Shown: positions 9,557-46,408, counted from the first letter of the stretch. The stretch: DNA of 64,000 nucleotides from an uncultured Candidatus Peribacteria bacterium (GCA_964521495.1 CAZFTF010000002.1:23936-87935); one strand, 5' to 3'. Numbers and translations: made by a program. The notes: a model not told the origin generated them from the sequence alone.

Positions 9557-10477
9557 TTATTTTATAAACCCCCTCACAAAATCCTCTCCAGAAATTCGTT
9601 TCTTGCCTGCTGGTGTGAGTTCATGGATGATGAGGTAGCCATCAGAGAGAGCGAGAGCGGGAAGTCAGTCTTTTATTTGCCAACTCAGGGGCTTGTTAGT
9701 ATGTTTTTCAGGAGATTTTTTCACAGTATGTAGTATAACTTTTGTTTCTCAGAAAAAAGTATAAAGCCCAGGCCAAGGCGTGTAGGCTTGCCAAGCATGG
9801 TGAGTATGATCGAGCGACCAATCGGGCTGGATCTCGCCATCAGTTTTTTCGATATATTTTGTGTAGGTGGCTTCTGAGTCATCTTGTTTCTGAGGTGTAA
9901 GAGTTCCATTATGGAGTCCTTGAATTGCTTCCACGAGGAGTGACCCAGCTCGTTCTCCTGTTTTCTCAAAGAGGGATCCTGTTGTATCGGTTTCGATTAT
10001 TTCCCAAGATTCCTGCACCAAAATATCACCCTCATCCATTCAGAGCGACATTTGCTGGACAGTGAGACCTGTGATTTTTTCACCATCGAGGAGCGCATGC
10101 TGTATTGGTGCTGCCCCACGATATTTTGGGAGGAGGGATGTATGGACATTGAGAAAACCCATCGGTGGGATATCGAGGAGTTCTTGGGGGAGGATTTTCC
10201 CATAGGCGACCACGAGACAGATATCAGGTTTGAGAGCCTTGATGGCTTCGAGAAAATCGGGATTATTTTTGACTTTATTAGGTTGCAGGAGAGGAATGTT
10301 TTTTTCTTTTGCGAGCAATGTTATGGGGGACTGTATGAGCGTATGTCCTCGCCCTCCAGTAGCGTCAGAATTGGAAACTATTGTAACCAATTCGAGTTCT
10401 TTTGAGTCGAGGAGATATATGAGAATATCAGCTGATAGTTGGGGGGTACCAAAGAATATTGCACGGAGTTTTTTCAT
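9557..10477 (-). CDS. fmt: Methionyl-tRNA formyltransferase
   Basis: Track ORFs 10040..10477 and 9749..10039 plus a tail are joined through three TGA codons. Motifs: FFGTP, VVAYGKILP, FLNVHTSLLPKYRGAAPIQHALL. TAA at 9557-9559. Confidence 0.9.
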
Positions 10478-11217: not shown

Positions 11218-11748
11218 CTATACTCGAATCTTTTTTACTACTTCCTTATATCGGAGGCATTTTTCTGTGGTTCCTTTACCGGTAAGTCCTACGAAAAACC
11301 ATAAGGCTCAGAGTAAAACAAGAATAATCCCAGGATGACTAGATTTTTTGATCGTTGGTCCCACATCGATTTTGAGTCATTTTGCATCCTTTTTCTCAGG
11401 GGCAGGAACCTGGGTGATAATAGCATCCATAATTGGGCCACCAATGATAATCAAGAGGAGGCCGATGATCGCTTGGCTGATACGGAGTGTCCTGTGTTTG
11501 ATGAGACACCAAGGAAGTAACCCCTTTAGGAGCAGAAAAAGCCCAAGCACCATCAATCCGATGTGTGTATATCTTTCTTGTAGGGGACTTAGTACACCCA
11601 AGAACGGTATATCGAGGATAGATCGACTATCAGCGTACCAGAGCAGCTCTATAATGACCAATCCAGAGACAATATGAAATATCCGTATAGTGCTATCTTT
11701 TGGACGTTGTGCCACAAATTTGGCTACTTCAAGAAGGAGAGGATTCAT
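11218..11748 (-). CDS. Hypothetical multi-TM membrane protein (176 aa)
   Basis: Track ORF 11377..11748 (hydrophobic) is extended through two TGA codons to TAG at 11218-11220. It converges on the previous gene with a 3-nt gap. Confidence 0.5.
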
Positions 11749-12062
11749 AGAAAACGAAGAAAAATAAGATACTTTGAGTTTATTCAGAAACCATAAAATG
11801 CAAGAAGTGTTTTTTTATTGATAACTACTATAAAACAAACAATTCCAGGGGATACTGCAAGATGTATTTATAAAATATCTCTGATAAAATTTGAATGTAG
11901 CAACGTTATTGAAATAAAAAAGGAAAAGGTTATTAATTTTTTGAATCAAGGAGTATAATTTGGTGCTGGTAACATAAAAAATAATAAGTCAATACTCTTT
12001 CTGACGGAAAAAGAAGAAATACACGGAGGAATTATTTGAATTTACAGAGGTTATCTGGTAAT

Positions 12063-15000
12063 ATGAAGTGGAATATGAAAAAACTTGTCCTCATTTTAGC
12101 TCTTATTGTCTGATACTCTTCAGTATTTATGACGCCGTTGTATGCGGCAAGAGAAAAGATAGAATTTAATAATGGTGGATGTAGCTGAATGAACTGTTTT
12201 TTAAAAGGAGTTCAAGATGCTGGAGATAAGTTAAAAATAACTGGAGCTGTAACAGGTGTAGGTATTTCGGATGCTATTCAAGATTTCATCATTTATCTTC
12301 TAGGTTTTATATCCCTCATAGCACTTATTTATATCATGTATGCTGGTGCACAAATGCTTCTAAAACCTGCTGATGAGGAATCAGCAGCGAAAACGAAAAA
12401 AATTATCATTGGTGTTATTTCTGGTATTGTGGTTATATGGTTTGCATGGTGGATGGTGAGTACTATTTTCTTTATTTTAGGGACGGGAAACAATAAGATT
12501 TCATTTATTCCTCAAGCTATTGCAGAAACGCAAATAAGAAAAGTGGATTTTACGACATACAGTAACAGAATCGAAGCACTTAAAACAAAAATCGATGCAG
12601 AGTATAGCCCTGAAGTTATGAGTGAGCTCACTATTTTGATAGATGGAGCGTATGACCATATGCCGGATAGGGGTGATCTCTACCTCAATAAACAGCTCTA
12701 TGATACTGTTAAAAAAGCTATCGCTGACTATAACCTTCACAGAGAAATTATTGATAGATGAATTCTGCAAACAGCACTGCGTAATTTTATAGAATCAGCA
12801 GAGGTTTACATGATTAAATCTGAACCAGAGGCGACTCCACGTACTGGAGATGCCCCACTGTCTGTCACACTGGAAGCAAAAAAAACTATCGATGAGAGTG
12901 GCACTCTGGTACCAAATGATAACTATGTATGGTGGCTGAGAACAGAATGAGGTGGAACACAAATCATCGGAAAAGGTAATATTGTAAATTATACTTTTGA
13001 AACTTCTGGAACATATATGGTATTTCTTACGGTGAACTCCGCGAGTAAAAATAGTCGATGATTTGCTGATGTTATCAATTTTGAAGAAAGCGTCGTATTG
13101 GAAATCGGACAACCCAAGGTTAAATTTATGGTCAAGATAAATGATCAGTTGGTCAATCGGACGTTTAAGATATCTACAAAGGAAGCACTTAAGCCAATAC
13201 GGATTGATGCATCTGAGACACGATTTGCTTCGGGGTATACTACAAAGAATACAGAGTGGGATTTTGATAATGGAAATACTGACTCAAACGAAGGAGATCC
13301 TCAATTTGAAACACAGATGTATGAGCCTGGGGACTATGTTATACAGCTCAAATTGACTCGAAATGATGATGAAGAATTTACCTACCCAATCTTCTTAAAA
13401 ATTGGTGATCCTCTTGCGTCTATATCTACTACAACATGATCACCAAATAAATGAGAGAAAACTACTTTTCAAGCAAAAAAAACATCGAACGAAAATGATG
13501 TCCAATATCTTTGGGAGGTAAAAAAACAGGGGAGTGATGCTATCCTATATACTTCATCAGGTACTCGTTTAGAATATGTTTTCTGAGATACGGGGAAGTT
13601 TTTTGTCACACTGACCTCTATTAAATGAGATGTTCGAGATAAAGATACGATGGAAGTGAATGTGGAGTCACGACCACCAAATGTTCAATTTACAAGTGAG
13701 GTGGTATCTTCTGAGTTACCAAATGTTTTCTTGTTTGATGGCAGTAACTCTTTTGACCCTGATTATCCTGATAATCAAAAATTACGATTTGAGTGGTTTG
13801 TAAATGATACTGCTGTACAGTTAGCAGAAACAAATGAAAGAAATAGTCGTTGAAAATATACTTTTCCCGAAACAGGAATATATCGTGTATTGCTGAGAGT
13901 CACAGATGAGGAGTGAAAAACAAAAGAAGCACGCCATGAGGTAAGGGTTACCAGTATTTTGTCAGTTCAGCTTAACATGCGACCTGCAGTAGTCAAACGA
14001 TGACAGAAAGCGATATTAACTGTGACGGCTCCACGCGCAAAGACGTATGAATGGAAGATGGGAAACAATGAAGTAATTCGTACCGAAACAAATCGGTTTG
14101 TGACGAGCTTCTCTGTCTCATGAGTTATTCCGGTATCAGTCACAGTAACAGACGTAGATGGGGAGAGTAATACTGCCACAGAAAAAATTTATGTCATGGA
14201 AGATGAGCAACCATTTTCAATACTTGACCTCAAGAGCGAGTCTATACTTACCTTTTCTCAAAAGAGTGTCTGTAGTGGAGAAGAGGCTATCACATTTGAT
14301 CGGGCAAATTCAATTTCCTTTTCTGCTGATAGAAGTGTGAATATGGATGGTCGGAATAATGACCTTACCTATTTTTGGAAAATAGGTCTCAATAAGACAT
14401 CTACACAGAAAAATCTTTCCTATACATTTGATGAATTAGGTTGCGAAGAGATTAGTTTGACAGTTTCTGATAAAGTTACTGGCGCTTCCCATACAACAAA
14501 AACTTGGGTAAAGATCGTCAATCTAGCACCTATTTTTAATGATATTCAAGTCGTAGTTGAAAATCTGGATATGGATCCTATGCATGTCGATCTCAAGATT
14601 CTTGGCGCCAAAGATCCTGATGGACTTATTCGTTCCTATACTTGGTATTACTACACTGATCGAGATGAACAGCCTCAATGATTTCGTATTACACGATTAC
14701 CAGAGGCAAATTTTATCTTGCCAAAAATTACCGGGCGGTATTATTTCGCTGTCATGATGGAGGATTCAAATGGTCTTAAAATCAACACAAAAGAAGCTTC
14801 AGAGGTGCCTTTCTCGACGCCAGATTTATATGTAAATACGAATCTCTCGACACCAATTATTGAAAATTTCAAAGCTGATAATGCGGAAGTGAAATTTTGA
14901 GATATAACTGAGCTTTCTCTCGACGTGAAAACACCAGTTGCGAGCGATGTATGAGATAAGTCAGAATATCGATGGGATGTTGACGGGGATGGTTTTTATG

Positions 15001-17342
15001 ACGTCAAAACAACAACACCATTTTATAAATTCAAATATGTGTATCCTGGGGAATACAATCCAAAAGTCAAAGTTACACATAAATGAATATCTGCTACAAA
15101 AACAATAACCATCGTTGTTAAGAATAGTCTCATACCCAGGGCGACAATACAGATGTTAGGAAATAAAATCATTGCCTACAATACTTCATCAGGCATTTAC
15201 CAGAGTGCGAACTGGTATCTGGATGATAAGAAAATTTCTGAAAACAAAGAATATCTTGTATCAGAGATTCAATGATCGACTCTTCAAAATCTCAAACTCG
15301 AAATCTCGGACGGAAAAACCACAGAATCAGCGGTATATCCTATACAGGCTACTCTCAAAAATAAAGTTCTACTCAAAAAAATTACTCGTCCATTAGTTGT
15401 GGCGTCTTCTCTGAGTGGAGGAGATGTCACCGAGACTCCAGATGAGATAGTATGGGAAGATCCTATGACTCCTCTTTATCTCTATCTCGGCGAATCTCGA
15501 GGAAACATACGATATTATGTCATAGATACAGATATTGATATAGATACTGACTTATCTGGTTGAAAAGATGATGATGCTGACAATAGAGGTACTGCTTCAT
15601 ACCGAGGCGGAAGACCATTTCAGATACCAAAGGGCACCAAGAGGGTGACTATTATGAAGATCAGACTGATATGAAATGATAACAAAGATATCGATGTACG
15701 ACAAATTCGTGTTACACGAAAATTCTTAGCTGCTGTAGAACCAGAGATTGTAGAAGATAAGCAAACTCCAAAGATATTTAATCTTTCTCAAGAAGACAAG
15801 GATCGAATTGAAAAACTCAGAAACCTCGTTCAGTGAGCCCCAGAAGAGGAAAAACAGGAATTCAATAAAATTCTGGATCAGTTGGGAGATAACTGGTATG
15901 ATGTTGCTGAGCGTATTCAGACACTCAATTTCTTGTCCAACACAGTCAACGCAAGTCCGACATTATCTGCTGAGCTTAAGAAAAAAATTCTCGAACAAAT
16001 CAGCATTGTTTATACACAAGGAGATGATGTGATAGAGGAAAAACAACTTGCACTCAAAATGATAAAAGAATATCTCGCAAAGAGTCCTAAGAAGGTACAC
16101 ATATTTGGAGATTCAGAAACGACAGGGTTAATCAATGAACTTATTGATAATCCTGAGTATTATGAAGCTAATCTGAAAGTGATTCAAAAGATTATGGATG
16201 ACTATGTAGATCCAGATACGACATTGACTGCAGAAGTGAAAAAAGATATTAAAGAAAAATTGATGATACTTGCTGGGTCTCCCCCAGCCGCAATTGATCC
16301 AGATGTGCCTACTAAAGATGACACATCATCGGGTCGACTTACATGGCTCCTGTGGATTCTTTGAGGCGTGATGTGTATTATATTTGGTAGTGTTGGATTT
16401 ATATATGCTCGTCAACGACTCTCTCAGCATACAGATGCTCCAGAAGAAAAGCTAAATACCACATCAGAAACAATAACATCTCAAGAATCAGAAAAAAACT
16501 CTTCAGATCAGTTTATTTCTCAAGACGTTGCATCTACTACTCCTGATTGGCTCAAAGAAGAAGATTCTTCTCCATTTTGAAATGAAGATGTATTTTCAGA
16601 AAATGTTTCAGAATCTTCTGACGTTCATCAGCCAGAATGGCTCCAGGATACATCGACAGAAACTCTCACTACATCTGAAAAATCTGTTGAACCAATACAG
16701 AGCGAGCCTCCTACAATTCCAGTCAAAAATGATACAGAGGTCACTCCAGTTGAAGAAGTAGCTGCTTCAACAGAAACGGCAGGAGAGATCCCAGATTGGC
16801 TCCAGGGCACATCAGAAGATCAGGATGGTGTGCTAACGGAAGAATCAATCACTCCAGAAGCGAGCGTTCCTCCTGAGAAACAAATTATTCCTGAGACGCA
16901 AATTGAGGGTAGTATTGAAAATAAAGAAACACAAGATGATGATATTCCTGACTGGTTACGATGAGCAGAGAATACTCTTGCTGAGGAGGGAAAAACTTCA
17001 GAAATCTCTAATGATATTTCAGTTCCATCTGATGAACAATTGTTCGTAAACGAAGAAACATCTTCTGATGATATTCAAACATCTGTCAAAGAAGAAACAC
17101 CTCAAAATGATTGAAAAAATATAAAAACTGAAACAATAGAAGATGCAGAAAAAGAATTACTCGAGAGCCCAACGCATTTAATTGAGCCAACTCAAGACGC
17201 ACTCATTGACTCACCAGAAAAGAAAAAGACCGCAAAGAAGAAGTCGCCTACTCGTAAGCCAAAGACAGTTCCAAGTGACCATCTTCTTTCATCAGAGCAC
17301 GATATGCTCCTTCCTTCATCGACAACAGATCACCCTCTCTAA
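12063..17342 (+). CDS. Giant envelope protein (1,759 aa): signal peptide, TrbC/VirB2-like two-TM pilin hairpin, PKD-domain array, Ca-binding-like D-rich loop, helical stalk, TM helix, acidic tail with PDWL motifs
   Basis: Track ORFs at 12189, 13098, 13650, 14196, 14718, 15882 and 16368 are all in frame 0. I translated every gap and found only TGA, never TAA or TAG. PKD-like signatures include GDAPLSVTLEA, WDFDNGNT and RWDVDGDGFYD. Hairpin: IQDFIIYLLGFISLIALIYIMYAGAQMLLKPADEESAAKTKKIIIGVISGIVVIWFAWWMV. TM helix: LTWLLWILGGVMCIIFGSVGFIYA. TAA at 17340-17342. Confidence 0.8.
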
Positions 17343-17350
17343 TTCGTTTT

Positions 17351-19699
17351 ATGGACATTAAAAAAGACACATCATCTGTAAATAAAAGTTCTTTATTCCA
17401 AAAAATAGTGAGGTTTACGATGAGCGATGAGAATTATCAGCCAGAAAAGATAATACAAGCAGCCAGAGAGAAAAAACCAGTGTCATTCTGGAAACATACT
17501 AAGGCCGCTCTTTTGGTATTAGGAGTATTTTACCTTTTGTTGTGTGCTTTTATATTGCTCAATCCTGGATTTTCACTCTTCTTTAATAATGTTTTTGGTA
17601 TCGAGTATGTTACAGTTCAATTTATACTCGAGTATACGATATATGTTTTTTATAGTATTTTTGGTATTTTGTTAGGTATTGTATTTTTATTTTTTTGGTA
17701 TAGATCGATAGTTATCAAGACCCGAAAAAATTACAAACGAATTGTTCTTTGGGTATTAACACTTGTATTTGGATGACTCTTTTTCACCAATGTGGCATTA
17801 TTTGCATGGACCTATACGTGGTTTCTGTCTATTGATTTTACCAATATCAATGAGCGAGTTATTATGTATGACAATGTTCTACTTGGCTATAAACAGAAAC
17901 TACCAAATCCAGAACATTTTGGGTATAGTAAAAAGGTATCAGTGAAAGATTTGTCATTTTACAAAGTCCCTAAAAAGGTCATATGACCTCTCAGTATTCG
18001 CTATGATATAAGTCCACAAATCAGAAAAGTAGTCCGTGAAAATGGTATCTTGCTGAATCGCTGATATTCTTTTGAAATTGATTATAATGGTGATGGTGAT
18101 CCTGATACTGGCTCCGGGGACAATGCTAATGTCGACTTGGCTATTGATAATCCTGAATCTGAAGTTCTCGCTCCTGAATTATTTAATAAAATAGGGCATT
18201 ACAAAACAACCGCCAAGATTCGAGCAATAGATGCTGCAGGAAATAAAAAAGAAATAGACATAGAAATGCCTGATGTTTTGATACAAAATGTTGTAGAAAT
18301 TTCACGAAAAGAGGGTGTAGACGGGGCAAAAATATATTTATTTAATGCCTCAAGTCTTGCGAATCTTGGACAAGCTCGATGGAGTATTCTCGGTGATCCA
18401 GAATCAACGTACGTAGGGTATCAATTTTCTCCGAAAAATATCAAACAATATCCTGCTATTGTTTGTCTCAAGATGCAGCCAATGGATGTACAAGCAAACG
18501 ATCCCTGTGATTGGAGATATGTGATTGATGAAAATATCCAAAAAAATATCACTAACACGGCCATTGCAATAAAGATTGATCCCATTAATCCATTGAAATA
18601 TCAATTCTCTATTGATCCAAAACTCTTACAGGGGGAGATAAAAAAAATCCGTTGGAAAATTGACGGAAAGACATTTGATGGAAAATTTCCTTCAGGAACA
18701 GAGAAAATACTTGAATACACGTTTAAAGAATCAGGAACTTATTTACTGGATGCCGAAATAGAGGATACACTGGGAAATATTGTGAATACTTCAACAGAAT
18801 CGATTTTTACAACATTATTTACAGAACTTAAAAGTGGGTATGCTCTCAAAATATCTGATGAAAATGGAGGGGACTTAGGGAAAAATAATTACAATATACA
18901 TACCAATACTTATTTCCTTCCCGATAGCCCAGTTCCAACAGTGCTGACAATGGATGCCATAGGTATACAATCTGTGAATCCACGCCTTAAGCTCTCAAAA
19001 GTTGAATGGGATCTGGATAACGATGGAATTTTTGAAAAAAAAGGATTGAAAATAAATCCAGAACTTTTATTACCAGAACAATATACTATCTATGTTCGAT
19101 ACACGTTTGAAGACAAAACAGTTGATGGAGATATCAAACCACAAATCTATATCGACAAAGTAATAGTAAAGTGAATTCAAAAAGATATAGATGTTCGTGT
19201 CAGGATTCGTCCTGATCATGACTATGCTCCTGCTCTTGTTCATTTTGATGCAACTGAATCACGAGTACAACGAGGGGAAATACTCAAATTTATCTATGAT
19301 TTTTGAGATGGCAGTAAAGTCTATGAAGGAGAAGGTATTGTCGATTACCGATACAAAGTACCAGGAGAGTATAAGGTGCGTGTCACAGCAGTAACAAAAG
19401 ATGGTAGAAAGGCAGTCAAAGAAAGTATGTTGATCATTAAAAAGCCACAAGAAACCATTGCAATTATCCCAAGTGTGTCTTCTGAAAATGCACAAGCGGG
19501 ATTTCCTATTACATTTGAGGTCATTTCTCAGGGTGATACGGAATCAATAATATGGAATTTTGGAGATAATTCACAAATTGAACAAGGTGAAAGTGTTGTT
19601 CATACATTTTGAACTTCGGGTACCTATTCAATCAGCGTGAGAGCAATATATGAGACAGGTATAGAAAAATCAGAGACCATTACCTACCAAGTGAAATAA
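17351..19699 (+). CDS. Multi-TM PKD-domain surface protein (782 aa)
   Basis: Track ORFs 17351, 17792, 18137 and 19376 share one frame and are joined through TGA. The N-terminus has several hydrophobic helices. PKD-like motifs: IRWKIDGKTF, VEWDLDNDGIFE, FIYDF[G]DGSKVYEGEG (the motif Gly is a TGA) and IWNFGDNSQ. It starts 8 nt after the previous gene. TAA at 19697-19699. Confidence 0.75.
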
Positions 19700-19703
19700 A
19701 TTT

Positions 19704-20747
19704 ATGTTTTACGATATTTGACTCTTTTTTGAAACATTCTGGCAACCGCTGAGCATTATTTCTCTTTCAGCAGTTGGGTATTGTAGCCTGCTTCATTGGT
19801 ATGGTAAGATTTCCAAAACCCAAACTCTCGCCCTATTCTTAACAGGTATTATCGTGATAACCTGTATTTTTCTTCCATTTAATTGGTCTATAGGAAATTC
19901 TGGGCAAACACAAGAAATAAACCTCTTTTTCTTCACGCTTAACATCGAATGAAATAATTTTATTCAAGCTCTTCAGACAACCCTAGAATCCGGAAGTATT
20001 ACGAATAATGGGGCAAATAACGCTGTTACGTTTTTTCTCGCTTTCCTCGAAGAAATATCCAAGCTATGACTTTTGATTCTTCTGGTCAAAAAAGTTCTGA
20101 AATGGCCAATGGTATTGATAGGATTTGCTCTTCTTGGAAAAATAGTGTACGAATACTACGGCACAGAGGGTATTCCTCTTCTTCATACGACTTTGATTGG
20201 TATAGGGGGTTTTATTCTAGTGGTCGTTCTTGGTATTTGTCTGTCATTTTCTCGTCAGCTCGAGAGTGTATCAGATTATGTTTTTAGTATTGCACTGGTT
20301 GCAGCCGGTTTTGCTTTTGCAGAAAATATCAAATATATGATGGATCTCTTTCATAATGGACAAACAGAAGAAATGATTCTTCATAACGCAATTGGGCGTT
20401 CTATTTTTTGATATCTCTCACATATTTTCTTCAGTATGATTTGTGTCCTCATTTATGCTCGTGGAAGGTTTGCATTTTTGAGAGCAATTGACGATATTGG
20501 CAATGTCTCGCCTCTTCAGAAAACACTTGGTTGGTCAACCTATACTCTGCTGATGACTTGGTTGGGGTTTATTGGGGGAGTCATCGTAGCCACCCTGATT
20601 CATGGGTACTATAATATTTTAATTAACCAGGATCCAATAATACCATTCATTATTCTGGTAATCGGTTTTTTGTTTCTAGAACTCTTTGTCCTCCATAGTT
20701 TCCGAAATACGACACGCTACGGGCATCTCGAAGCCGCAATGGGATAA
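19704..20747 (+). CDS. PrsW-family intramembrane metalloprotease-like protein
   Basis: Track ORFs 20073..20411 and 20436..20747 plus an N-terminal part are in one frame with 4 TGA codons. Polytopic membrane protein carrying FLEEISKL (EExxK), AAGFAFAENIKY and HNAIGRSIF[G]YLSH, which match the PrsW protease motifs. Confidence 0.7.
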
Positions 20748-20770
20748 ATAATAATAGTCATACATTCCAC

Positions 20771-20806
20771 AAATATCTCCTATTTTTATAGGAGATATTT
20801 TTTTAT
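20771..20806 (+). terminator. Rho-independent terminator after the prsW-like gene
   Basis: Perfect 13-bp stem aaatatctcctat/ataggagatattt with a tttt loop, followed by a T-run. Confidence 0.6.
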
Positions 20807-20875
20807 ACTCAAAATATTTGCATTCTATAAAATGATATGATAGGATGATTGTGTTCATATTTCTAATTCATTTTT

Positions 20876-23800
20876 ATGAAAACAAAGAAAAAGCTCATCG
20901 CAATCGGTGTAGCAGCCTCAATTCTTACCGCACTTTTTGTGTTGGATCCAGGAGGAAGAATAGGTTCCCTCGCCTCGAGGATGCTCGATCAAATCCCAAA
21001 TCCAACTGTGGATCACCAGATAATACCGCGTCTTCCCAATAATGTATTTTGAAGAACAAATGGTGACGAATATTATCATCCTCGAGGCGTTGCTGTTTAC
21101 GGAGATAAGCTCTTTGTCACTGACTGGTATAGGCATCAAGTTAAAGTAGTCAATAAAAGCACGGGGGAGGTAATAAGAATTATTGGTAAACATGGATGAG
21201 AAAATGGTGAATTTAGTTATCCATTTAATATCGTCATTGATGAGAAGAATAAATTTTTCTATGTGACTGATCTCAACAATCATCGTGTACAGAAATTCAA
21301 CCTTGAAACATATGCATATGTAGCTAAAATTGGTACTCAATGAAGCGGTCCTGGTGATTTTGTCAACCCAACAGGTATTGCTCTGGATGTAGAAAATAAT
21401 CGTCTCTATGTCTCTGACTACCACTGTCGTGTTCAGAGATTCGAGCTTAGTACTCTTCAGTATCGTGATACTTTCGGAGGAACATGTGGAAATAATAATA
21501 ATCAATTTAATCGTCATAATGGTTATGGTCCTGAATCATTGGAAGTTGATTCGGAAGGAAACGTCTATGTTGCCGATACATGGAACAATCGAGTTCAAAA
21601 ATTTACCCATAATGGACAATATTTAGCTACTGTTGTGTCGAGTGCGACCACTAATACAACTGTTACATGGCCTATGGGGTTATTTATTGATAAAGGAGGA
21701 TATCTCTACGTTACATCTGCTTATACACATCGAATCAAGAAATTGGATATCAAAGCAGCAAACAATCCACTCATCAGAGAATATGGATCTTATGGAAATG
21801 ATAGTGATGAGTTCCATTATCCAAGAGGCATCTTTGTAGATCAAGAGACAGATATTTATGTTGCAGATACTAACAGTCATCGTATCAAAATCTTTCAACA
21901 ACATATCATCGTGCCTACGGCTCCAACAAGTCTTACAGCGACACCAAATGTCACTGAGATTGGGCTGACATGGACAGCAGCTTCACCAAGAACAGGGACA
22001 CCTCTTCTTGATTACATTGTAGAATATAAAAAGACAACTGCTGATGATTGGAGAAGGTTGAGTGATGGTATAGGCACCAATACTTCTGCGACTATTGCAG
22101 GGCTTGATGCGAATACAGATTATCAATTCCGCGTCTTTGCTCGTAATACTGCACGAGAAGATGGAGAAAAGAGTGCTTCCATTCAAAGAAAAACTCTCAA
22201 TACCCTCGCACCAAAAGCACCTACTAATCTCGTGGCCGGTATTGGTAATAGACAGATTAATCTCAGTTGGACAGCATCGAATACGAACGGATGATCGGCT
22301 ATCAAGGATTATATTGTAGAATTTAGGCTAAGTGGTGGTCAATGGCAAGTTTTCCCTGATTGAGTTCGGTCTACTACAACAGCTGACGTAACTGGTCTAG
22401 CAAATGACACTCGATATGATTTCCGCGTAAAAGCTGAAAATAGTACGTGAACAGGAGCATTTAGTCCATATTCTGCTATTGTATCTCGTGCACCCACTGC
22501 AGATGATAAATGTAATGATATCGCTGGGGTTCAAACAGTAGTCCCAAAGAATCTTAAAAGAAATTCACAAGGAGATTGTGTATGTATCAATGAGGGTGTC
22601 AGAATGTCGGTTGCAGATCCAGCAACATGTACTTTGACATGTAGTGATACGCGTCGTGAACCTGCAAAACCACAGTTCAAAGTTGTATATGATGACGGTT
22701 ATCCACGACTCTATGAAAATAATCAAGATACTGTCGGTACACCTATGACGGCAAGACGAATAATTATTAGTGACGATGCGGACGGTACTGTGTTAGATAC
22801 AAATTCATGGATTCCTCTTTTCCGACCAAATGTGCAACCATTTTATGATGGTCCGATTATTCAAGACGCACTTCGACTCTCTCTCGCGAGAAATGGGAAT
22901 ACTCTCAAAATGCTCTGGTATGGAAACCGTGTAGATGATAGAATAGAACGTGTTAAAGGACGTATTATTATCGACGGAAGTCCTGATATTAGATGGACCG
23001 GATTTGTAGAACAAAATACGCTCGAAGATAATACTGACAAGATACGTATTGCTGATAATAATCCTAAAGTGATTTATTTTGATATGGTTGTAAATCCAGC
23101 GATTGATTCATTTATTGCCAAGTTTGATCTCGGATCTCGAGAAGATGCCTGTGTCGAGAAGCCTCTTATTATCTTTGATAAAAATGCCTCTGATGCTACA
23201 GGTAGTATGAATGATCAATTATTGCCAATTAATACAGCCACAGCTCTTACTGCAAATGCTTTCAGTCGACCATGATATCAATTTGCTGGCTGGAATACAG
23301 CTGCTGATGGCGAAGGAACGAACTACGCTAACAGAGCGAATTACACGATGGAATCTGCCAGAAATATTACTCTCTACGCAAAATGGGCTGCTTCTACCTA
23401 TCCTATCACCTATAATGCCAATGGCGCAACGAGTGGTTCAGTTCCCGCTGCTCAAACAAAAATACATGATGTCGCTCTTATACTTGGAGCGAACTCAAGT
23501 GCTCTCGTAAAAACTGGATACACCTTTTCTGGTTGGAATACCGCTGCTGATGGTACTGGTACCAATCATGCTGCTGGAGCAAACTATACAGCAAATGCTG
23601 CACTAAATCTCTACGCAAAATGGACTCTGAATACACACACTGTGAGTGCTGCTGCCAATATTCAAAATGGCTCAATAACTCCTGCTACTCGATCAGTTGG
23701 GCATAATGCAACGACTACATTTACAGTTACTCCAAATCCTGGATATGCTATTGCTTCTGTAACAGGATGTGGCGGTACGCTCTCAGGCAGTACATATACT

Positions 23801-26800
23801 ACCTGACAAATTACAGGCGCATGTACTGTTAGTGCAGTATTTTCTCTCAATGCTGCTGCTTCATGTACTGGTACTCGTCCGGCAAATTCTATTATAAAAA
23901 TGGATAACGGTGCCAGCACGGTATCTCATCCGTGGACACATAGCGTATCAACTGGCCCATATATTCTTTGTACATTCCAATGTAATGCAGGTACTACTTA
24001 TAATAGTTTCACTAATACTTGCGATGCTGTAGCTGTTACATATCCTGTCACATATAATGCTAATGGCGCAACTGGTGGTTCAGTTCTTATATCCCAAATA
24101 AAGACACACAATGTTAATCTTACACTTGCGGGCAACTTGGGTAATCTCGTAAAAACTGGATACACCTTTGCTGGCTGGAATACAGCTGCTGATGGCAATG
24201 GTATCAATTACAATGTTGGATGAATTTATACAGCAAATGCTGCAGTAATTCTCTATGCTAAATGGATAGCAAATTCGTATAACATTTTTTTTAGCGGTCA
24301 AAGTGCTGAAATAAATGCTAATCCTATTTCAAAAACAGTTGTTTTTCCTGCAACAACTGTTGGTACTCTTCCATCAAATCCTATCAGAACAGGATACACT
24401 TTTGGAGGATGGTATACAGGCGTCCTTGGAACCGGAACACAATTTACAGCAACCACAACCATATCAGCAAATCTCACAGTGTATGCTAAATGGACACCTG
24501 TAGCTGCCACATATGCTGTCACTTACAATTCCAATGGCGCAACGAGTGGCTCAGTTCCTGCTGCTCAGACAAAGACACACAATATTGCTCTCACACTTGC
24601 TAACAACACAGGTAATCTCGCAAAAACTGGATACATCTTTACTGGTTGGAATACAACTACTGATGGTACTGGTGCTAACTATACTGCCGGAGAAAATTAT
24701 ACAGCAAATGCTCAGGTAATTCTCTATGCAAAATGGACTGCAGCCCCTATCAACGGATCTTGCGGAACAGCTTCTACAGCATATCCATCAGATGCAACAT
24801 GATATGGTAGCTCCACTCTCTGTGCAACTGGTACATCAAATCCTGCAAACCCAGTATTTCCAGTAGTAGGCACACCTACAACATGGACATGTACTGGTGC
24901 AAATGGCGGAACAAATAGTGGCACATGTACTGCGACAAAAACAGCAGCAACAACCTATGAAGTTACTTACAACGCCAATGGTGCAACAGGAGGTACAATT
25001 CCTACTGCTCAAACAAAGACTCATGATATTACTCTCGTACTTGCAAGTAACTCAGGTAATCTCGTAAAAACTGGATACACCTTTGCTGGTTGGAATACAG
25101 CTACAGATGGTACTGGTACCAATTATGCTGCTGGAGCAAATTATATAGCAAATGCTCAGGTAATTCTCTATGCTAAATGGACTGTAGCAGCAGATATTAC
25201 CGCTCCAACAGTAACTCTCGATCTCCCAGCAACATATACCGCACTGACAGTACCTGTAACTATTACACCAAGTGAAGAAAATGTGAGTTACTTCTTCACA
25301 GAAGGACCTACCCCAGCAAATGGAATCTCCGTACAGCCACCTACTACACCACGTGCAGATGCATCAGGATGGGTTACGACAAAACCAACAACATACACAT
25401 TCCCAGAAGCTGGATCTCGTACACTCTTTGTGTGGGTAAAAGATACTGCAGGAAATGTATCAACAAGCCCTGCACAAGATGTAGTAGTTATTACTCTTCC
25501 AGAGCCTACTGCTCCAACAGTTGTTCAGGTAACTTCCACGAAACCAAATGGTGCTTACAAATCAGGCACTACTATCCCAATCACGATAAAATTTTCTCGA
25601 CCTGTCATAGTCACTGGTATACCAACATTGATACTTGAAACTGGTACAAATAATGTGACGATTCCTTTTAAACAAAAGGAAGCTGATGGTGAAACTCTTA
25701 CTTTTGAGTATATCGTATCTGACGGCAATATATCACCTGATCTTAACTACGTTGCTACTGATTCTCTCAAGTTGGATACAGCCGCTATCACTATCAAAGA
25801 TTCTGTATCAGGCGTAGCGGTGAATCGTACATTACCTGCTCTTACTTCTGCAGAGAGTCTTGCAGGAAGCAAAGATATCGTCATTGACACAACAAAGCCA
25901 GCTGCACCAGTTGCTATAATTGTGCCACAACAGGTAAATATTACTCTTTCATCTGCATGAACAGGATCATATATTGCAACCGGTAGTACGATGACTATAA
26001 ATGTTGCTTGTGCTGCAGGTGAAAAGGTGAAAATCTACAACCATCTTTCTCTTTTACCAATCCAGGGAGCTAATTGTAGTAATAATCTCGTGACTCTCTC
26101 AATCGATCTTTTTGCACAGGCATGACCATATAATTATTATGCTACTATCACTGATATGGCCGATAATGAATCAGATCGTTCTCCTCGTATTATGGTTCTC
26201 AAAGGACAAACAGAAAGCAGTGCTCCTAGTACACCAGATCTTGAGTCAATCTTTGATCTCGGTATATCAAGTACTGATAATCTCACGAGCGAAACACAAC
26301 CAAGATTTACTCTCACCTGTGTTTCTGGTTCCACGGTCAATCTGTATGACAGCACGACTCTCATAGGTACTGCCCCATGTATGGCAGATACCGCTCAGAT
26401 TCTCCCACTACAACCATTCTCATCTGGTGTTCATAGTCTCACAGCAAAACAGAGTATCAATGGTACCACTTCAGCAACTTCAGGTGCTCTCAGTCTCACA
26501 ATAGATACAGCGCCACTCACAGTGGTAATTGCTCGAGCTGCAGAACAATCTGAACCCGCTACTTCATCAACTATCAAGTTTACTGCTACATTTAATAGGG
26601 CGATTGATGCGAATTCATTTATCTGCAGTGATGTCACCGTTGTGAATGGTTCTTGTACAAATATCGCACTGCTTGGCAACAATGCATACATGGTGACTGT
26701 CACAGCTACTGCCCAAGGTATTGTCAAGGCTATCCTCTATCCAGGACGAGTACAGACCAATGCTGGTAATACCAATACAGAAGCAACAGGTGTAAATACA

Positions 26801-27631
26801 GTGACATATGGAACACCGGCAGCTACAGCAGAATGTAGCGCTCTCAGGAGTCATACTGTTCCAAGACCAAAGTCTTCATCTCTCGGTGGACTGACTCTCT
26901 GTAAAGCAGGAACACCATCAGCAGTATCATATAGTAGCTCTCGACTTCAATGGACATATCAATGTCGTAGTGCAGTCGATGGGACCACTGCTTCTTGTAC
27001 TGTTGCCGCGGTTCTCGATTCAGCACCAAGTTGTGATCTCAAACCAGTCAATGCTTTACCGTTTGATGAATGTAGTATTGAGAATACGAGCAATATGTTT
27101 AACTTCCATACATACCTCTCTTGTCTTGGTGTTGTCCCAGAAAAGAAATCATGTACCGATGCAGGTTGTACACAGAATGCGAAACGACAAGAACTTATCT
27201 CTATAGGTGTTCGTCTGAGAGGAATCCCTCTTGAATCTGGCTATGAATGTCAAAAGAGCCATACCGATACCGTCAAGGGTGTAGCATCGTGGGTGTGTGA
27301 AGCGGCTGAAAAAGCTCAAACAGCTGGTCTGATTTCAGCAACGAACAAACAATTCCGACCTCTTGATACCATGACTCGTTCTGAGGCATACTCAGTTCTT
27401 ATGAAGAGTATCTGTGTTCATCCAGAAACAACTTACAAGAACTGGCAGACAGAGGTAGCTAAAGCTGCAAAAGAATATGGATTTACTACTCGTAGTGTTG
27501 CTACATTTGAACCAAATAGACAAATCCTGCGTCAAGAACTCTTCGTTCTTGCTGCTCGTCTCGCTGAATATGCAGCTGATAATCCAGGTCTTTGTGAACC
27601 GCTCCCTGAAGAACTTATCTGTGAATCGTAG
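20876..27631 (+). CDS. Giant surface protein (2,251 aa): N-terminal anchor, NHL repeats, two Fn3 domains, six Listeria-Bacteroides (Flg_new) repeats, Ig-like modules, Cys-rich region, SLH-like C-terminus
   Basis: Track ORFs at 21539, 22604, 23348, 23900, 24479, 25283 and 26156 are all in one frame, and the gaps contain only TGA. NHL: YVADTWNNRVQKF, LYVSDYHCRVQRF, IYVADTNSHRIKIF. Fn3: APTSLTATPNVTEIGLTWTAA...YQFRVFARN and NLSWTAS...YDFRVKAEN. Repeats of the type YNANGATSGSVPAAQTK...KTGYTFxGWNTAxDGTGTNY...LYAKW. C-terminus: FRPLDTMTRSEAYSVLMKSI and FEPNRQILRQELFVLAARL (SLH-like). TAG at 27629-27631. Confidence 0.85.
23168..25180 (+). repeat. Intragenic array of six ~75-80-aa Listeria-Bacteroides-type repeat modules with long near-identical DNA stretches
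   Basis: Each module ends in LYAKW. DNA strings such as aaaactggatacacctttgctgg(c/t)tggaatacagct recur near 24157 and 25067, and ccaatggcgcaacgagtgg(t/c)tcagttcc recurs near 23415 and 24532. Confidence 0.7.
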
Positions 27632-27653
27632 TTATTGCAAGATGCTTTTAAAA

Positions 27654-27684
27654 ATACCACTCTCTCGGGAGTGGTATTTCTTTG
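27654..27684 (+). terminator. Rho-independent terminator after the giant gene
   Basis: Stem ataccactc/gagtggtat with a 6-nt loop, followed by ttctttg. Confidence 0.6.
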
Positions 27685-27721
27685 AAATACAAAAATATAT
27701 AAGTCAATTATTTTTATGCGC

Positions 27722-27769
27722 AATAGTGTTTAAACACTATTTACAACATACTATATGTGTATAGTATGT
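27722..27769. promoter_or_regulatory. Two adjacent palindromes (candidate operators) upstream of the 27795 gene
   Basis: A perfect 20-bp palindrome aatagtgtttaaacactatt (27722-27741) and a 10-bp inverted repeat acatactata-tgtg-tatagtatgt (27746-27769). They are followed by the direct repeat ttttacttatt x2 just before the ATG. Confidence 0.35.
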
Positions 27770-27794
27770 TTTTACTTATTTTTTACTTATTTTT

Positions 27795-28703
27795 ATGACT
27801 ACAAAAGGAAAACTCATCATCGTATGAGTAGCAGTGGTCGCTCTTGGAATGGTTTTTGTCAGTGGTTGATTGTGATCAAATTTGGCATCAAGCGCTCTTA
27901 AAACTGCGAGAGTGCGAATCATACCACCAACTACTAATATGCCAATGACTACAGAAATACTTACCACATCAATACCATATTCTTCAGAGGAAGTGACAAC
28001 TTCTGCGCCTGCGCTTCCTACACTATATCCGCAAATTATTTATTCCGGTAACACATCCAATCAGCCAGGAGAACAGCCCAAGAGTCAATGTGACAACACT
28101 ATAAATAATTATGTAGTTCAATTAAAACCAACGTTTCAAGATATTGAGAGTCAGCCATTTGAATCCTGTCAACTTTGGTCTGATGATGAAAGAAGCCAAA
28201 TGAGTTATGAAGTTGAACAGGAAGCAGTAAAGTCTGGGAATAAGGCAATTATTGACGAGATTCGGAATTGTTTGGACAAGCAAGAGATGCAATACAAGGT
28301 TAGAGACACTGCTATAGGACGCTGTAGTAATAATCTTAGAAAAAACGCTGTCAATCCATCTCATTTTGACGTTAAGTGTCCATCTTGTCCTTCTGGCTCA
28401 GAAGGATGTCAGCCATTTTCTATTATTATAGAGAAACCTTATCCAATTAATCCAAATGCGGAATCGTGAGCATTCTTGCAACAAAGGTCTATTAAAAAAG
28501 AGACAAGAAGTTTTATATCAGAAGATGGACATAGAATTTCTTTCAAAATAGTTACTATTACTTATGTTTTGGTTTGTTGAGCGAACGAACAAAAACAAGT
28601 TATATTTCAAGGGGGATGTAAAGCATGTACTGAGAATTGTACCTCTCTCATTTGTCCTTGAGATATACCTACAGAGAATAGTGCACAAGAATCTTCATGT
28701 TAA
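27795..28703 (+). CDS. Cys-rich secreted or membrane-anchored hypothetical protein (302 aa)
   Basis: Track ORF 27882..28469 is extended in frame. The N-terminal TM/signal is MTTKGKLIIV[G]VAVVALGMVFVSG, and the C-terminal extension runs through three TGA codons to TAA at 28701-28703. There are multiple Cys pairs (KCPSCPSGSEGC, GGCKACTENCTSLIC). No family recognised. Confidence 0.5.
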
Positions 28704-28726
28704 TAAGTTAGAAAATGTGAATACAA

Positions 28727-28760
28727 GGAGCCACCATCTGGTGGCTCTTTTCTTTTTCTT
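28727..28760 (+). terminator. Rho-independent terminator
   Basis: Stem ggagccacca/tggtggctct followed by ttctttttcttttc. Confidence 0.6.
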
Positions 28761-28800: not shown

Positions 28801-30537
28801 ATGCATATAACTCGTATTACTTCTGCCTTGCAGTCTTTTTTGATTTCCAATTATCCAGATTGTTCCGTTGATGTCTTTCAGATGACCGTGCCTCCAGATA
28901 AAAAAATGGGGGATATTTGTCTCAATATTTTTGGTGCTGTGAAGCAGTTGAAGACTTCACCACAAGTACTTGGAACTTCATTGGCAGACTATTTCAAACA
29001 ACAGGATTTTGTGCTCGATGTGCAGGTGCTTTGAGGTTTTGTAAATCTCTTTCTCGCAGATAGCGTCTATATTGAAGAAACCAACAAATGGAAATTGCCA
29101 ATATGGGAAAAATGAGATGAAACCGTGATTGTGGATTATATGGGGGCAAATATTGGGAAACCACTCCATATCGGGCATCTCTGTACGCCACTTTTTGGTC
29201 AAGCGACTATCAATATGCTTCGCCTGATGGGCTATACCGTGATTGCCGATATGCATCAAGGGGATTGGGGTGGAATATTTGGGAAGCTGATTACTGGTTG
29301 GAAATATTTCTGAGATGAAACTGCTTTTTCATCAGCACCACTGAAACATCTCTTGGATATCTATGTCAAAATTACAGAAAAAATTGAATGAGATGAGACG
29401 ATAGATCAGGAATGTCGTGATGCTTTCCGACTCCTCTCTGACGGTGACGAAACATCCGTGAAACTCTGGCAACGATTTACTGACGCGAGTCTCGCTTCGG
29501 TTCGAGAAGTGATGAGCGATTTTGGAGCAAAACCAGTCGTTTGGATAGGGGAGAGTTTTTATGAGTGACTTTCACTTCCAAAGCTTGGTCCGTGGCCAGA
29601 TCTACAGCCAGATAACACTATGTCTGCGGTGGTTCGTGAACTGATTCAGTCAGGCATTGCAACCAAAAATGAGGATGAAAGTGTTGGAGTAGTCTTTTCG
29701 AAAGAATCAAAACTTCCTTCCTGTATTCTCCAAAAACGAGACGGAACCCATGGTTATCTCGCGAGCGACCTTGCTGCTATCAAATACCGTCTCAGAAATT
29801 GGAATCCATCAAAGATTATGTATTTTGTTGATAATCGCCAGGCGCTTCATTTTAAACAACTCTTTGCAACCGCTGAGAAGGCCTGGATAGGTGATAATGC
29901 TGTAGAACTTACTCATGCCGCCAATGGCTTTGTAAGTTTGCCAGAATGAGCGATGTCGACGCGCCATGGTCGAGTGATATTTTTGAGCGATGTGGTAGAG
30001 GAGAGTTTTGATCGTGTAAAGGCGATACTTCTTGAACGAGGGAAAGAGCTCGCTGACTCAGATATCCGAGCCGTGGCACTTGGCGCAATAATTTACTCCT
30101 TTATGGCTCAAGATAGAGAGCGTGATTGGATTTTTGAATGGGATAAAGTTCTTGCCTTCGAGGGGAGTAGTGGTCCATATCTGCAGTACACCTTCGTACG
30201 ATTTGCGAAAATGTTGCAAGAATTTGGTTACGATAAAAATACTGAAATTCCTTCAAATTCTGTACCACTTACTTCCTATGATAAAGAGCTGGTGCTTGAT
30301 ATTCTCGGATTTGCAGATGTGCTTACACAGTGTGCTGAGACCTACAAATTTCACCTCCTGATAGCCCATATTACGACCACGGCTCGTCATCTCAATGCAC
30401 TCTATGTGAATACGCCAAAACTCAGGGATTCATCATCAGAGGAACGCGCTATGAGGATGCGAATTATCGCTCAAACACTGGAGATGATACGATATTCGTG
30501 TGAGATTGTTTCCATTCCATTACCGAAGGAGATGTAA
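28801..30537 (+). CDS. argS: Arginyl-tRNA synthetase
   Basis: Track ORFs 28801, 29125, 29620 and 29953 share one frame and are joined through TGA. Features: HIGH-type motif ANIGKPLHIGHL, KRDGTHGYLASDLAAIKYR, and a DALR anticodon-binding C-terminus. Confidence 0.92.
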
Positions 30538-30566: not shown

Positions 30567-31136
30567 CTACCATAGATTTACCTCAGGAAGACTATCATCA
30601 ATAATCATAATACTATAGTAATTAGTCGCTGAACAGCCAGGAGTAGAGTCTGTACATGCTGTTTGACAATTTCCTACTTCGTATATCTGATTGTCGTTAA
30701 TATATCAAGATTGGTCTCCGGGACCATCGGTATCATTGAGGGGCGTATTGGATGCGCTTTCAAAAAGCGTTCCTACTGCATAGCCATTCCCCCCATCACA
30801 GACTCGATAAAGATATCAACAGAGCCATGTTCATTGGCATAGAAATTTATGATCTGTTCCATCTGTTTGGTTTGAAAGAGGATCAAAAATTCATTTTCCA
30901 TTATTCATACTTACTATCAGATCATGAACAGCACCATACGACTGAGGTGGCGCACCAGTCGTACTGAGTGATCCTAGTATAATAGTATTAATAGCATTAA
31001 TATCTGCTATTCGTGTTGTATCCCTCGCCTTCTTGATATACCCAGTATACGCAGAGAGACCAGCAGTTGCGAGGATAGCAATAATAGCCATCACGACCAT
31101 AAGTTCGATAAGGGTAAATCCTGGTTGTTTTTTCAT
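30567..31136 (-). CDS. Type IV pilin (prepilin with class III signal peptide)
   Basis: N-terminus MKKQPG/FTLIELMVVMAIIAILATAGLSAY is the canonical prepilin cleavage/methylation motif. Track ORF 30891..31136 is extended through four TGA codons into a Cys-containing C-terminal domain. TAG at 30567-30569. Confidence 0.8.
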
Positions 31137-33321: not shown

Positions 33322-33366
33322 GGCTCATCTTTCTTACAACATTACTATTATCTTTTATTTCTTACT

Positions 33367-34575: not shown

Positions 34576-34578
34576 ACT

Positions 34579-42006: not shown

Positions 42007-42009
42007 ATT

Positions 42010-43269: not shown

Positions 43270-43276
43270 GGAGATA

Positions 43277-44533: not shown

Positions 44534-44536
44534 ATA

Positions 44537-46103: not shown

Positions 46104-46113
46104 CAAAAATAAA

Positions 46114-46177: not shown

Positions 46178-46225
46178 AATGGTCATCGATAGAAATCTCT
46201 CAAGATGACACTTCGCTAAAAACAA

Positions 46226-46301: not shown

Positions 46302-46408
46302 ATATATTGAAATGAGAGTTTCCTCCCAACGTCGTGGATTATAGAAAAAATAATTGAAAAGCAAAATTTTTTACCGCTCTTCGCTTATTGTCTTTCTAAA
46401 AGCACAAA

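Follow-up and report, generated by a model that had tools for sequence, protein, structure and literature searches.

A predicted three-gene operon encoding two PKD-domain membrane proteins and a PrsW-family protease in code-25 Gracilibacteria

The 64,000-nucleotide stretch of DNA from an uncultured Candidatus Peribacteria bacterium that we analysed (GCA_964521495.1, CAZFTF010000002.1:23936-87935; hereafter the window) carries three adjacent genes, g1, g2 and g3, predicted to encode two membrane-anchored proteins with PKD domains and an intramembrane protease of the PrsW family. Comparison with related loci indicates that the true unit is a three-gene operon, g1-g2-g3, which is restricted to one code-25 clade of Gracilibacteria. 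We read the trio as a clade-specific envelope module whose PKD proteins would be matured, released or remodelled by the co-encoded PrsW, an explanation for which our confidence and our doubt are about evenly matched. Gracilibacteria are uncultivated, host-dependent and alternatively coded; to our knowledge essentially nothing is known of their surface biology, and giant orphan surface proteins are common in Candidate Phyla Radiation (CPR) genomes. An earlier note on this DNA had placed g4 and g5, the next two genes, in one transcription unit with the trio; this is not borne out, given a hairpin between g3 and g4, a separate predicted promoter for g4 and the absence of g4 and g5 in many relatives. 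The five genes, separated by gaps of 8, 4, 128 and 163 nucleotides (nt), are as follows:

12063-17342, plus strand: g1, 1759 amino acids (aa), 25 in-frame TGA codons; probable true start, MKK, at 12075
17351-19699, plus strand: g2, 782 aa, six in-frame TGA codons
19704-20747, plus strand: g3, 347 aa, four in-frame TGA codons
20876-27631, plus strand: g4, 2251 aa, 12 in-frame TGA codons
27795-28703, plus strand: g5, 302 aa, six in-frame TGA codons

The window (39.6% GC) uses genetic code 25, in which TGA encodes glycine. Table 11 breaks the region into fragments, and reading TGA as a sense codon yields stop-to-stop open reading frames (ORFs) of 1784, 813, 360, 2254 and 312 codons; ORFs of 1759 and 2251 codons cannot have arisen by chance in DNA of 40% GC. 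The code follows from three observations: where a column of the g1, g2, g3 and ArgRS alignments contains a TGA, 513 of 1048 cases in the other sequences are Gly codons, with Trp outside the ten commonest residues; the GIY-YIG box of UvrC reads IYI-TGA-K; and the TPM genes that adjoin the trio in relatives have Gly-rich tails with TGA inside GGFGGG runs. Code 25 had been assumed in the earlier note and is upheld by all three, and under it the five same-strand ORFs and the gap sizes listed there are reproduced exactly. Code 4 (TGA = Trp) is ruled out by the alignment-column test. No tRNA reading UGA lies within the window. A caution follows for database work: gene calls under code 11 shatter genes of the g1-g5 type in most public records.

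Gene order and distribution of the trio

Through 68 PrsW and 50 g2 homologues we arrived at 28 related loci (given L numbers below) in assemblies from NCBI, ENA, JGI and Logan; their genes were called anew with code 25 before the comparison with the window. The g2 gene lies immediately 5' of the PrsW gene in all 27 informative loci, and a full-length g1 (1729-1869 aa, 47-68% identity) lies 5' of g2 in 20 out of 20. Junctions measure 1-6 nt between g2 and PrsW and 3-12 nt between g1 and g2, across loci in which PrsW identity ranges from 82% down to ~50%. Between the window and L002, FtsA is 94% identical, ArgRS 83%, PrsW 74%, g2 63% and g1 58%. On the 3' side of PrsW an NHL-headed giant is found in the window, L001, L004-L007, L013, L014, L016 and L019; the ArgRS gene follows directly, with no g4, in L002, L017 and L018; ClpB follows in L003, L009-L011, L020, L021 and L026-L028; and L008, L024 and L025 have yet other genes there, YidC being among the replacements of g4 in more distant loci. 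Every locus of ~50-55% PrsW identity lacks both g4 and g5. A check of gene order across relatives, suggested in the earlier note, thus finds g1-g2-g3 kept in all informative loci, and of its picture of a PrsW gene wedged between PKD giants and an NHL gene the 5' half stands (the PKD genes are always there) and the 3' half does not. Because g4 is absent or replaced, mosaic and separately promoted, and g5 is barely conserved, the conserved unit appears to consist of three genes, not five.

The distribution of the trio is narrow. An exhaustive HMMER search of 1.84 billion representative proteins returned 21 matches to the PrsW subfamily at E<=0.001, consisting of two full-length 50% clusters plus fragments; after a gap come generic PrsW proteins at E>=7e-6, which align to g3 residues ~184-347 only. 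The PrsW and g2 families (68 and 50 matches) are equally narrow in distribution, and all named members of the PrsW subfamily belong to a Candidatus Gracilibacteria bacterium. The genomic context of two outgroup PrsW proteins, P0134 and P0128, was uninformative. Of the generic PrsW proteins from outside the clade, P0128 is the nearest, with 35% identity across the C-terminal half, and in L030 (3552-9971) its gene stands head-to-head with one for a 1672-aa protein that has no Pfam family. A phage or mobile origin of the trio was rejected: there are no relatives among viral contigs, and the flanking genes are housekeeping genes.

On the 5' side of g1, a LemA-TPM pair is present in 14 of 16 loci (for example at 758-2215 in L002 and 727-2203 in L006), with TPM plus Band_7 in L008. 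LemA and TPM are absent from the window and L012, and code-25 tblastn of the window found no trace of them. In these two, a 176-aa ORF (11218-11748 in the window, minus strand) or its ortholog abuts the g1 promoter in place of LemA-TPM; the window may keep the final few TPM codons (GGTGCTGGTAA) within 11749-12062. Four loci (L003, 3-590; L009, 2-532; L010, 3-737; L021, 2-508) encode, 5' of LemA, a protein whose SLH-like end resembles the C-terminus of g4, so that in these more distant loci the SLH-tailed neighbour lies on the opposite side of the module.

The DNA signals around the genes, all of them consensus-level predictions as far as promoters and terminators are concerned, divide the island in the same place:

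11985-11999, plus strand: conserved upstream box TAAGTCAATACTCTT, ~40 nt 5' of the g1 -35 hexamer; its core GTCAATAC is present in eight aligned loci
12036-12064, plus strand: predicted g1-g2-g3 promoter, with TTGAAT (12036-12041), a 17-nt spacer and a TG-extended -10 hexamer TAATAT (12059-12064)
20771-20810, plus strand: terminator-like hairpin 24 nt past the g3 stop, with a 13-bp perfect stem, a 4-nt loop and a T-run
20818-20846, plus strand: predicted g4 promoter, TTGCAT, 17 nt, TAGGAT
27652-27679, plus strand: hairpin after g4, with an 11-bp stem and a weak T-run
27722-27741 and 27746-27769, plus strand: palindromes upstream of g5
28725-28760, plus strand: strong GC-rich terminator after g5 and before argS, with 11 pairs, six of them GC, then TCTTTTTCTT

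The elements TTGAAT and TCTG(G/A)TA..AT of the trio promoter recur in each of the eight aligned loci, irrespective of whether the upstream gene is TPM, and a regulator may bind at the TAAGTCAATACTCTT box. In g1 the first ATG, at 12063, overlaps the -10 hexamer, so that the probable start is the ortholog-conserved MKK at 12075 and the predicted mRNA leader is very short or absent; the g1 ORF of the earlier note is real, and its start moves accordingly from the ATG in the -10 box to 12075. Hairpins of unrelated sequence occupy the matching position after PrsW in L001, L002, L004, L006 and L009. The g4 promoter pattern, ATATTTGCAT ... TAnnAT, is common to the window, L001, L004 and L006, which are loci with a g4-type gene. 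The terminator after g5 (AAGGAGCCACCA..TGGTGGCTCTTT) is nearly identical to the hairpin directly after PrsW in L002 (11057-11095), a locus with neither g4 nor g5, and this match fits either an insertion of g4-g5 upstream of an ancestral PrsW terminator or a deletion in L002. The two palindromes that the earlier note had placed before g5 are present. We dropped the 9-mer TAAGTCAAT as a candidate element common to g1 and g5: its two copies in the window (11985-11993, upstream of g1; 27700-27708, upstream of g5) compare with 1.3 expected by chance. Taken at face value, these signals predict three transcription units, [g1-g2-g3], [g4] and [g5].

Predicted architecture of the three proteins

Nearly all domains named in the earlier note (pilin hairpin, PKD, PrsW, NHL, fn3, Flg_new and SLH) are matched by Pfam. 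Both g1 and g2 are probably anchored in the membrane, with chains of PKD/Ig-like domains exposed on the outside of the cell. In g1 an anchor is found at each end, a VirB2-like hairpin near the N-terminus and a transmembrane (TM) helix near the C-terminus:

12075-12149, plus strand: signal-peptide-like N-terminus (MKKLVLILALIVGYSSVFMTPLYAA) with a hydrophobic segment at residues 8-26; the MKK start and the A-x-A-like end are kept in orthologs
12267-12467, plus strand: VirB2-like two-helix hairpin, residues 69-135, with TM segments 75-93 and 114-132
12519-12533, plus strand: P-x-A-x-A/E-T-Q segment after hairpin helix 2, a candidate processing site
12813-15452, plus strand: predicted extracellular PKD/Ig-like array, with PKD_4, PKD, PKD_3 and K319L-like matches between residues ~397 and 884
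15519-15662, plus strand: Asp-rich block (VIDTDIDIDTDLSGGKDDDADNRGTASYRGGRPF; VIDTDIDIDTDLSGGKDDDADN...), the most conserved part (0.83), calcium-site-like
16347-16403, plus strand: C-terminal TM helix, residues 1429-1447, hydropathy 2.34, with basic ARQR after it
16404-17339, plus strand: acidic tail of ~310 aa, with 73 acidic and 24 basic residues among the last 330 of the protein
16536-16556, 16626-16646, 16785-16805 and 16941-16961, plus strand: four [T/I]P[D/E]WL motifs in the tail
17217-17267, plus strand: Lys-rich patch of the tail
17274-17318, plus strand: tail end motif SDHLL..HDMLLP; in orthologs [D/E]-H-L-[I/L]...D-[L/M]-L

The signal-like segment is followed by a conserved Cys pair. 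The hairpin matches T4SS_pilin (PF18895) with E=2.1e-8 and 34.5 bits (cut-off 26.6), its two helices are joined by the basic loop KPADEESAAKTKK (KTKK), and g1 also has a weak NCBIfam match to a pilin-like conjugal transfer protein of a Mycoplasma integrative and conjugative element (ICE). By signal peptide, two helices, basic loop and profile, g1 thus looks like a PF18895 pilin; by size it does not, since pilins are small subunits of ~70-150 aa and g1 has 1759 aa (1729-1869 in orthologs) and a second TM anchor. Downstream of the hairpin, P.A.AE[TS]Q[IV][RK].[IV]DFTTYS is kept in all eight aligned g1 orthologs; the AxA/E part of this segment could equally be a signal-peptidase site. A conserved helical domain comes next, then the array (PKD_4 98.8 bits, PKD 76.8 bits), whose identity is even along its length (0.53-0.82 per 50-aa bin; 0.53-0.83 over the whole ectodomain). 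Such even conservation fits better with a fixed structural or machine component than with a diversifying adhesin. The Asp-rich block has no Pfam family, and between it and the TM helix lie a helical region and a variable Pro-rich linker. From the positive-inside charge pattern, the array would be outside the cell and the tail in the cytoplasm.

In g2, ~47 residues that are probably cytoplasmic precede three TM helices (17492-17830, plus strand), which would anchor the protein at its N-terminus, and an Ig/PKD chain (17831-19696, plus strand; PKD_4 91.7 bits, PKD 76.1 bits); weak TIGR00864 matches reflect PKD repeats only. The topology of g2 comes from hydropathy and from an AlphaFold 2 (AF2) model, structure models having been built from orthologs, P0069 for g2 and P0001 for g3. 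The P0069 model (71-73% identical; predicted local distance difference test, pLDDT, 76) has helices at 48-85, 89-124 and 130-163, then all-beta domains, and a Foldseek search of the PDB with it returned Ig-array proteins only, such as GhpA, a mastigoneme and adhesins. The description of g2 in the earlier note as a multi-TM protein with PKD domains is right as to the PKD domains and TM helices; there are three long TM helices and no large polytopic domain. We also considered g2 as a divergent VirB6/PrgH channel and rejected this, given only three TM helices, the Ig-array matches in Foldseek and no such Pfam match at E up to 10. VirB6 is reported to be undetectable in Gracilibacteria (PMC12102498).

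The third protein, g3, is by its sequence a divergent PrsW-family intramembrane protease with all catalytic motifs intact, as the earlier note had proposed. Residues 173-323 match PrsW (PF13367, MEROPS M82) with E=1.1e-10 and 41.8 bits, above the cut-off of 23.5, and the motifs lie at the following positions:

20049-20063, plus strand: EEISK
20307-20327, plus strand: GFAFAEN
20421-20423, plus strand: H240
20601-20615, plus strand: HGYYN

The residues of the EExxK, FAxxEN, H and HxxxN motifs (E116, E117, K120, F203, A204, E207, N208, H240, H300 and N304) are invariant in 22 orthologs and three distant PrsW proteins. The AF2 model of P0001 (82% identical; pLDDT 78.8; predicted template modelling score, pTM, 0.81) has nine long helices, consistent with the polytopic bundle of about eight TM helices of PrsW, and the ortholog P0010 carries the NCBI name 'PrsW family glutamic-type intramembrane protease'.

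Possible functions of the module

We propose that the proteins of its own operon are the probable substrates of g3, much as RsiW, a single-pass protein, is a substrate of PrsW; g3 would cleave g1, and perhaps g2, near the membrane. Candidate sites are the Pro-rich linker at residues ~1405-1425, before the C-terminal helix of g1, and the AxA/E segment after the hairpin, in which E156 follows AxA. The outcome would be the maturation, release or remodelling of an envelope fibre or coat that is conserved, and the g1 tail would couple this fibre or coat to cytoplasmic partners. That g1 and g2 may be the substrates is suggested by the strict gene order, the matching narrow distributions, the intact motifs and the precedents for PrsW. 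In these precedents, PrsW cuts the membrane-anchored RsiW at an extracytoplasmic site, the site-1 step, and PrsW has been predicted to be the releasing peptidase for filamentous surface toxins (PMC3482391). The label 'site-2-like' given to PrsW in the earlier note does not hold, the enzyme being of the site-1 type in the model system (PMC3482391).

Compared with the PrsW-RsiW pair of B. subtilis, the trio has the protease family in common, with the four motifs kept in g3, and the candidate substrate g1 likewise has a single TM helix near its C-terminus, a large extracytoplasmic part and an effector-like cytoplasmic tail. It differs in that the candidate substrates are giant PKD proteins of the same operon. 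A further set of points weighs against the proposed processing. No sigma/anti-sigma pair or site-2 protease (M50) of the kind found with PrsW-RsiW-sigmaW was detected near the trio, either in the 35 window ORFs that were scanned out of 59 called (including all above 320 aa except two antisense artefacts) or in the genes called from the loci; such genes could lie elsewhere in the genome. Apart from EExxK, no similarity to other PrsW proteins can be detected in the N-terminal half of g3. A Foldseek search with the PrsW model gave no match at E<=0.001 and no solved homologue, so that the assignment of g3 to PrsW rests on motifs and profile. The VirB2-like hairpin has no explained role in a model of processing by PrsW, and co-transcription can equally join functionally unrelated proteins.

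The second precedent, the PrsW-containing polymorphic toxins (Zhang et al. 2012, PMC3482391), resembles the trio in that PrsW is proposed to process or release surface-displayed, sometimes filamentous proteins. In those toxins, however, PrsW forms the N-terminal part, in cis, of a protein that ends in a toxin domain and is accompanied by an immunity gene, whereas g3 is stand-alone, would act in trans if it acts at all, and no toxin or immunity families occur in g1-g5. Judged by its predicted domains, the trio is therefore neither a sigma-W-type cascade, since no sigma or anti-sigma was found in the scanned window ORFs or the loci, nor a PrsW-type polymorphic toxin, since there is no fusion and no toxin. 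The giants of the cultured code-25 relative Vampirococcus lugosii (PMC8080830) are likewise large membrane proteins with PKD, fibronectin and similar domains, proposed to form a fibrous surface and to serve host attachment, but that generic description mentions neither a conserved operon nor a protease partner, a VirB2-like anchor or tail motifs, and this picture suits g4 better than g1 or g2. By analogy only, Notch and polycystin-1 receptors also combine a large repeat ectodomain (of PKD type in polycystin-1), juxtamembrane proteolysis and a motif-bearing tail; they are eukaryotic, use unrelated proteases, and homology is limited to the PKD fold. The module may thus belong to a familiar type, in which membrane-anchored surface proteins and a dedicated membrane protease are encoded together, in a combination that is new as far as we found. 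No description combining Gracilibacteria and PrsW came up in an incomplete literature search, and papers on Vampirococcus, patescibacterial type IV secretion systems (T4SS) and Gracilibacteria metaproteogenomics do not describe the operon; within this literature, the remark of the earlier note that it did not recognise the combination as a described system holds up.

Two alternatives seem to us unlikely, and equally so. In the first, the trio is a T4SS accessory: g1 would be a pilin-anchored adhesin of a patescibacterial (monoderm-type) T4SS, by way of its hairpin the PKD array would be extracted or displayed by the machinery, and PrsW would free the C-terminal anchor or mature the pilin part. 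C-terminal processing of VirB2/TrbC pilins is established, which counts in favour, as do the PF18895 match above the gathering score and the weak match to the Mycoplasma ICE pilin-like protein. It also counts in favour that VirB2-like pilins are widespread in Patescibacteria and T4SS genes are scattered in Gracilibacteria, with no T4SS adhesin identified (PMC12102498). The patescibacterial pilins (PMC12102498) are like g1 in their signal peptide, two hydrophobic helices and basic loop, but the g1 hairpin is part of a fusion with another ~1600 residues, among them a second membrane anchor, g1 has 1759 aa where pilins have ~100, and neither in the window nor in the loci does g1 lie beside virB4 or other T4SS genes. 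The scanned window ORFs include no VirB4, VirB6 or coupling protein and no other T4SS family, and no T4SS family was found within +/-10 kb in the fetched loci; the g2 model lacks a VirB6-like fold, and the hairpin may be a mere two-helix membrane anchor.

In the second, given the same low weight, g1 and g2 would form an S-layer-like scaffold and PrsW would be a general stress or quality-control protease that happens to share the operon. The even conservation of the g1 ectodomain suits a coat, PKD/Ig arrays are typical of surface-layer and fibre proteins, an archaeal surface-layer fragment is among the Foldseek matches, as are fibre proteins, and in most loci a membrane module of LemA-TPM (and Band_7) lies alongside. 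An incidental protease is harder to reconcile with the strict adjacency, with g2-PrsW junctions of a few nt over all loci, and with a PrsW subfamily that is as narrow as its PKD partners and highly divergent from general PrsW, which argues for co-evolution with a specific substrate.

A third alternative, slightly less probable again, starts from the tail of g1. Every g1 ortholog carries 3-6 copies of [D/E]-[I/V/T]-P-D-W-[L/M]-[K/R/Q], in tails of only ~35% identity; those of the window g1 are TTPDWLK, HQPEWLQ, EIPDWLQ and DDDIPDWLRG. FtsZ of the window ends (near 34540-34572) in a peptide including DLDIPAFLR, which DDDIPDWLRG resembles: the g1 tail fits the FtsZ-peptide pattern D-[IV]-P-x-[FY]-[LM]-[RK] with Trp in place of Phe. 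Among 161 code-25 ORFs (69,852 residues), the regular expression [DE][IVLT]P.[FWY][LMI][RKQ] matched 16 times in g1 tails, in the one FtsZ of this set, that of L002, and nowhere else, against a rough chance expectation of ~0.2 hits. At its C-terminus FtsZ has a conserved peptide that is the docking site of FtsA, ZipA and other division proteins (PMC5832921). As a hypothesis only, the g1 tail could bind divisome proteins; g1 would then be a PKD receptor that senses surface or host contact or the state of the envelope, and a site-1 cut by PrsW would release or expose the tail to FtsA or another partner of the FtsZ peptide, coupling attachment to division. The motif copies and their confinement to g1 tails and FtsZ favour this scheme, as do the role of PrsW as the site-1 enzyme of a known regulated-proteolysis cascade and the location of ftsA and ftsZ 3-5 kb downstream in the window and in L002. 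Against it, the likeness is that of a 7-residue motif with Trp for Phe, the proximity to ftsAZ is not kept in loci of the ClpB type, no site-2 protease is seen nearby, and the tail holds further conserved motifs with no assigned partner. A homologue search with the tail returned two ortholog fragments only, and a literature search for a 'PDWL' motif returned nothing relevant.

Least probable is a reading in which all five genes make one host-contact apparatus, transcribed as one unit, and PrsW processes the giants, the NHL adhesin among them: the genes are adjacent on one strand, a g4-like NHL giant follows PrsW in the nearest relatives and g4 and g5 have a leader in common, but this model is largely refuted by synteny, with g4 and g5 missing in L002, L017, L018 and all the loci of lowest PrsW identity, a hairpin terminator and a separate conserved promoter between g3 and g4, the middle of g4 swapped among relatives and g5 conserved in its leader only.

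The neighbouring cassette, the wider window and the meaning of the operon

By these comparisons g4 is an adhesin-like variable element outside the conserved operon, and g4 and g5 together are a separate, putatively recombining adhesin cassette in the slot between PrsW and argS, found in near relatives of the window only. The domains predicted in g4 are:

21053-21895, plus strand: NHL
21914-22474, plus strand: two fn3 domains
23243-25177, plus strand: six Flg_new repeats
26231-26509, plus strand: Big_13
27272-27388, plus strand: SLH

SLH-anchored proteins typically carry three SLH motifs in tandem; g4 has a single one (residues 2133-2171; 22.5 bits with the whole protein and 28.9 bits with the tail alone, cut-off 20.8). 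Relative to the giant of L004, identity is 39-46% in the N-terminal NHL/fn3 part of g4 and 63% in its C-terminal 715 aa, and the Flg_new middle is swapped for other Ig-type modules. The g5 protein has no Pfam or NCBIfam family and is predicted to be exported; with 13 Cys in 302 aa, it is Cys-rich as the earlier note had said. Its only conserved part is an N-terminal leader of ~35 residues, which recurs in g4 and in the small gene after the giant in L004 and L005. The leader pattern in g4 (20876-20980) and g5 (27795-27900), M-x-T-K-x-K-L-I-x-x-G-V-A ... G-G ... L-A-S, may be a lineage-specific export or anchor signal.

Upstream, the island is flanked by uvrC, nrdD, a VTT-domain protein, a HIT protein, fmt and two small ORFs of no known function. 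After argS and a type IV pilin gene come ftsA and then ftsZ and, farther downstream, a transaldolase, PilC/PilB-type pilus genes, a tRNA methyltransferase, ftsK, an MFS transporter, a sortase and a GH3 enzyme. The positions determined are:

9557-10477, minus strand: fmt
28801-30537: argS, downstream of g5
30567-31136, minus strand: type IV pilin gene, downstream of argS
32065-33321: ftsA
40864-45454, minus strand: PilC/PilB cluster, including two genes with no Pfam family
46020-46483, minus strand: cluster of tRNA-Tyr(GTA), tRNA-Thr(TGT) and tRNA-Met(CAT), the three tRNAs of the window
57570-58523: sortase gene

None of g1-g5 has an LPXTG-type sorting signal at its C-terminus, g4 ending in ...EPLPEELICES. 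The copy number of the pilin after argS differs between the window, with one copy, and L004, with three tandem paralogs (18750-20667; 50-61% identity). With TAA and TAG as the only stops, long false antisense ORFs appear, for example of 742 codons opposite g4 and 463 opposite ftsZ, and naive longest-ORF calling chose some of these spurious ORFs instead of real genes such as ftsZ (examples of spurious spans: 23603-25831 and 33355-34746 on the minus strand, 51902-52957 on the plus strand).

For the biology of these bacteria, the analysis turns a vague island of giant genes into a defined, strictly conserved three-gene operon with a candidate protease-substrate pair, and sets it apart from a neighbouring hypervariable adhesin slot. 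If PrsW does process g1, it would be a stand-alone PrsW dedicated to giant surface proteins, and the role of the family would extend beyond anti-sigma control and toxin release. If the tail motifs of g1 bind divisome proteins, the surface of a CPR cell would be tied to its division, a connection rarely seen in these bacteria.

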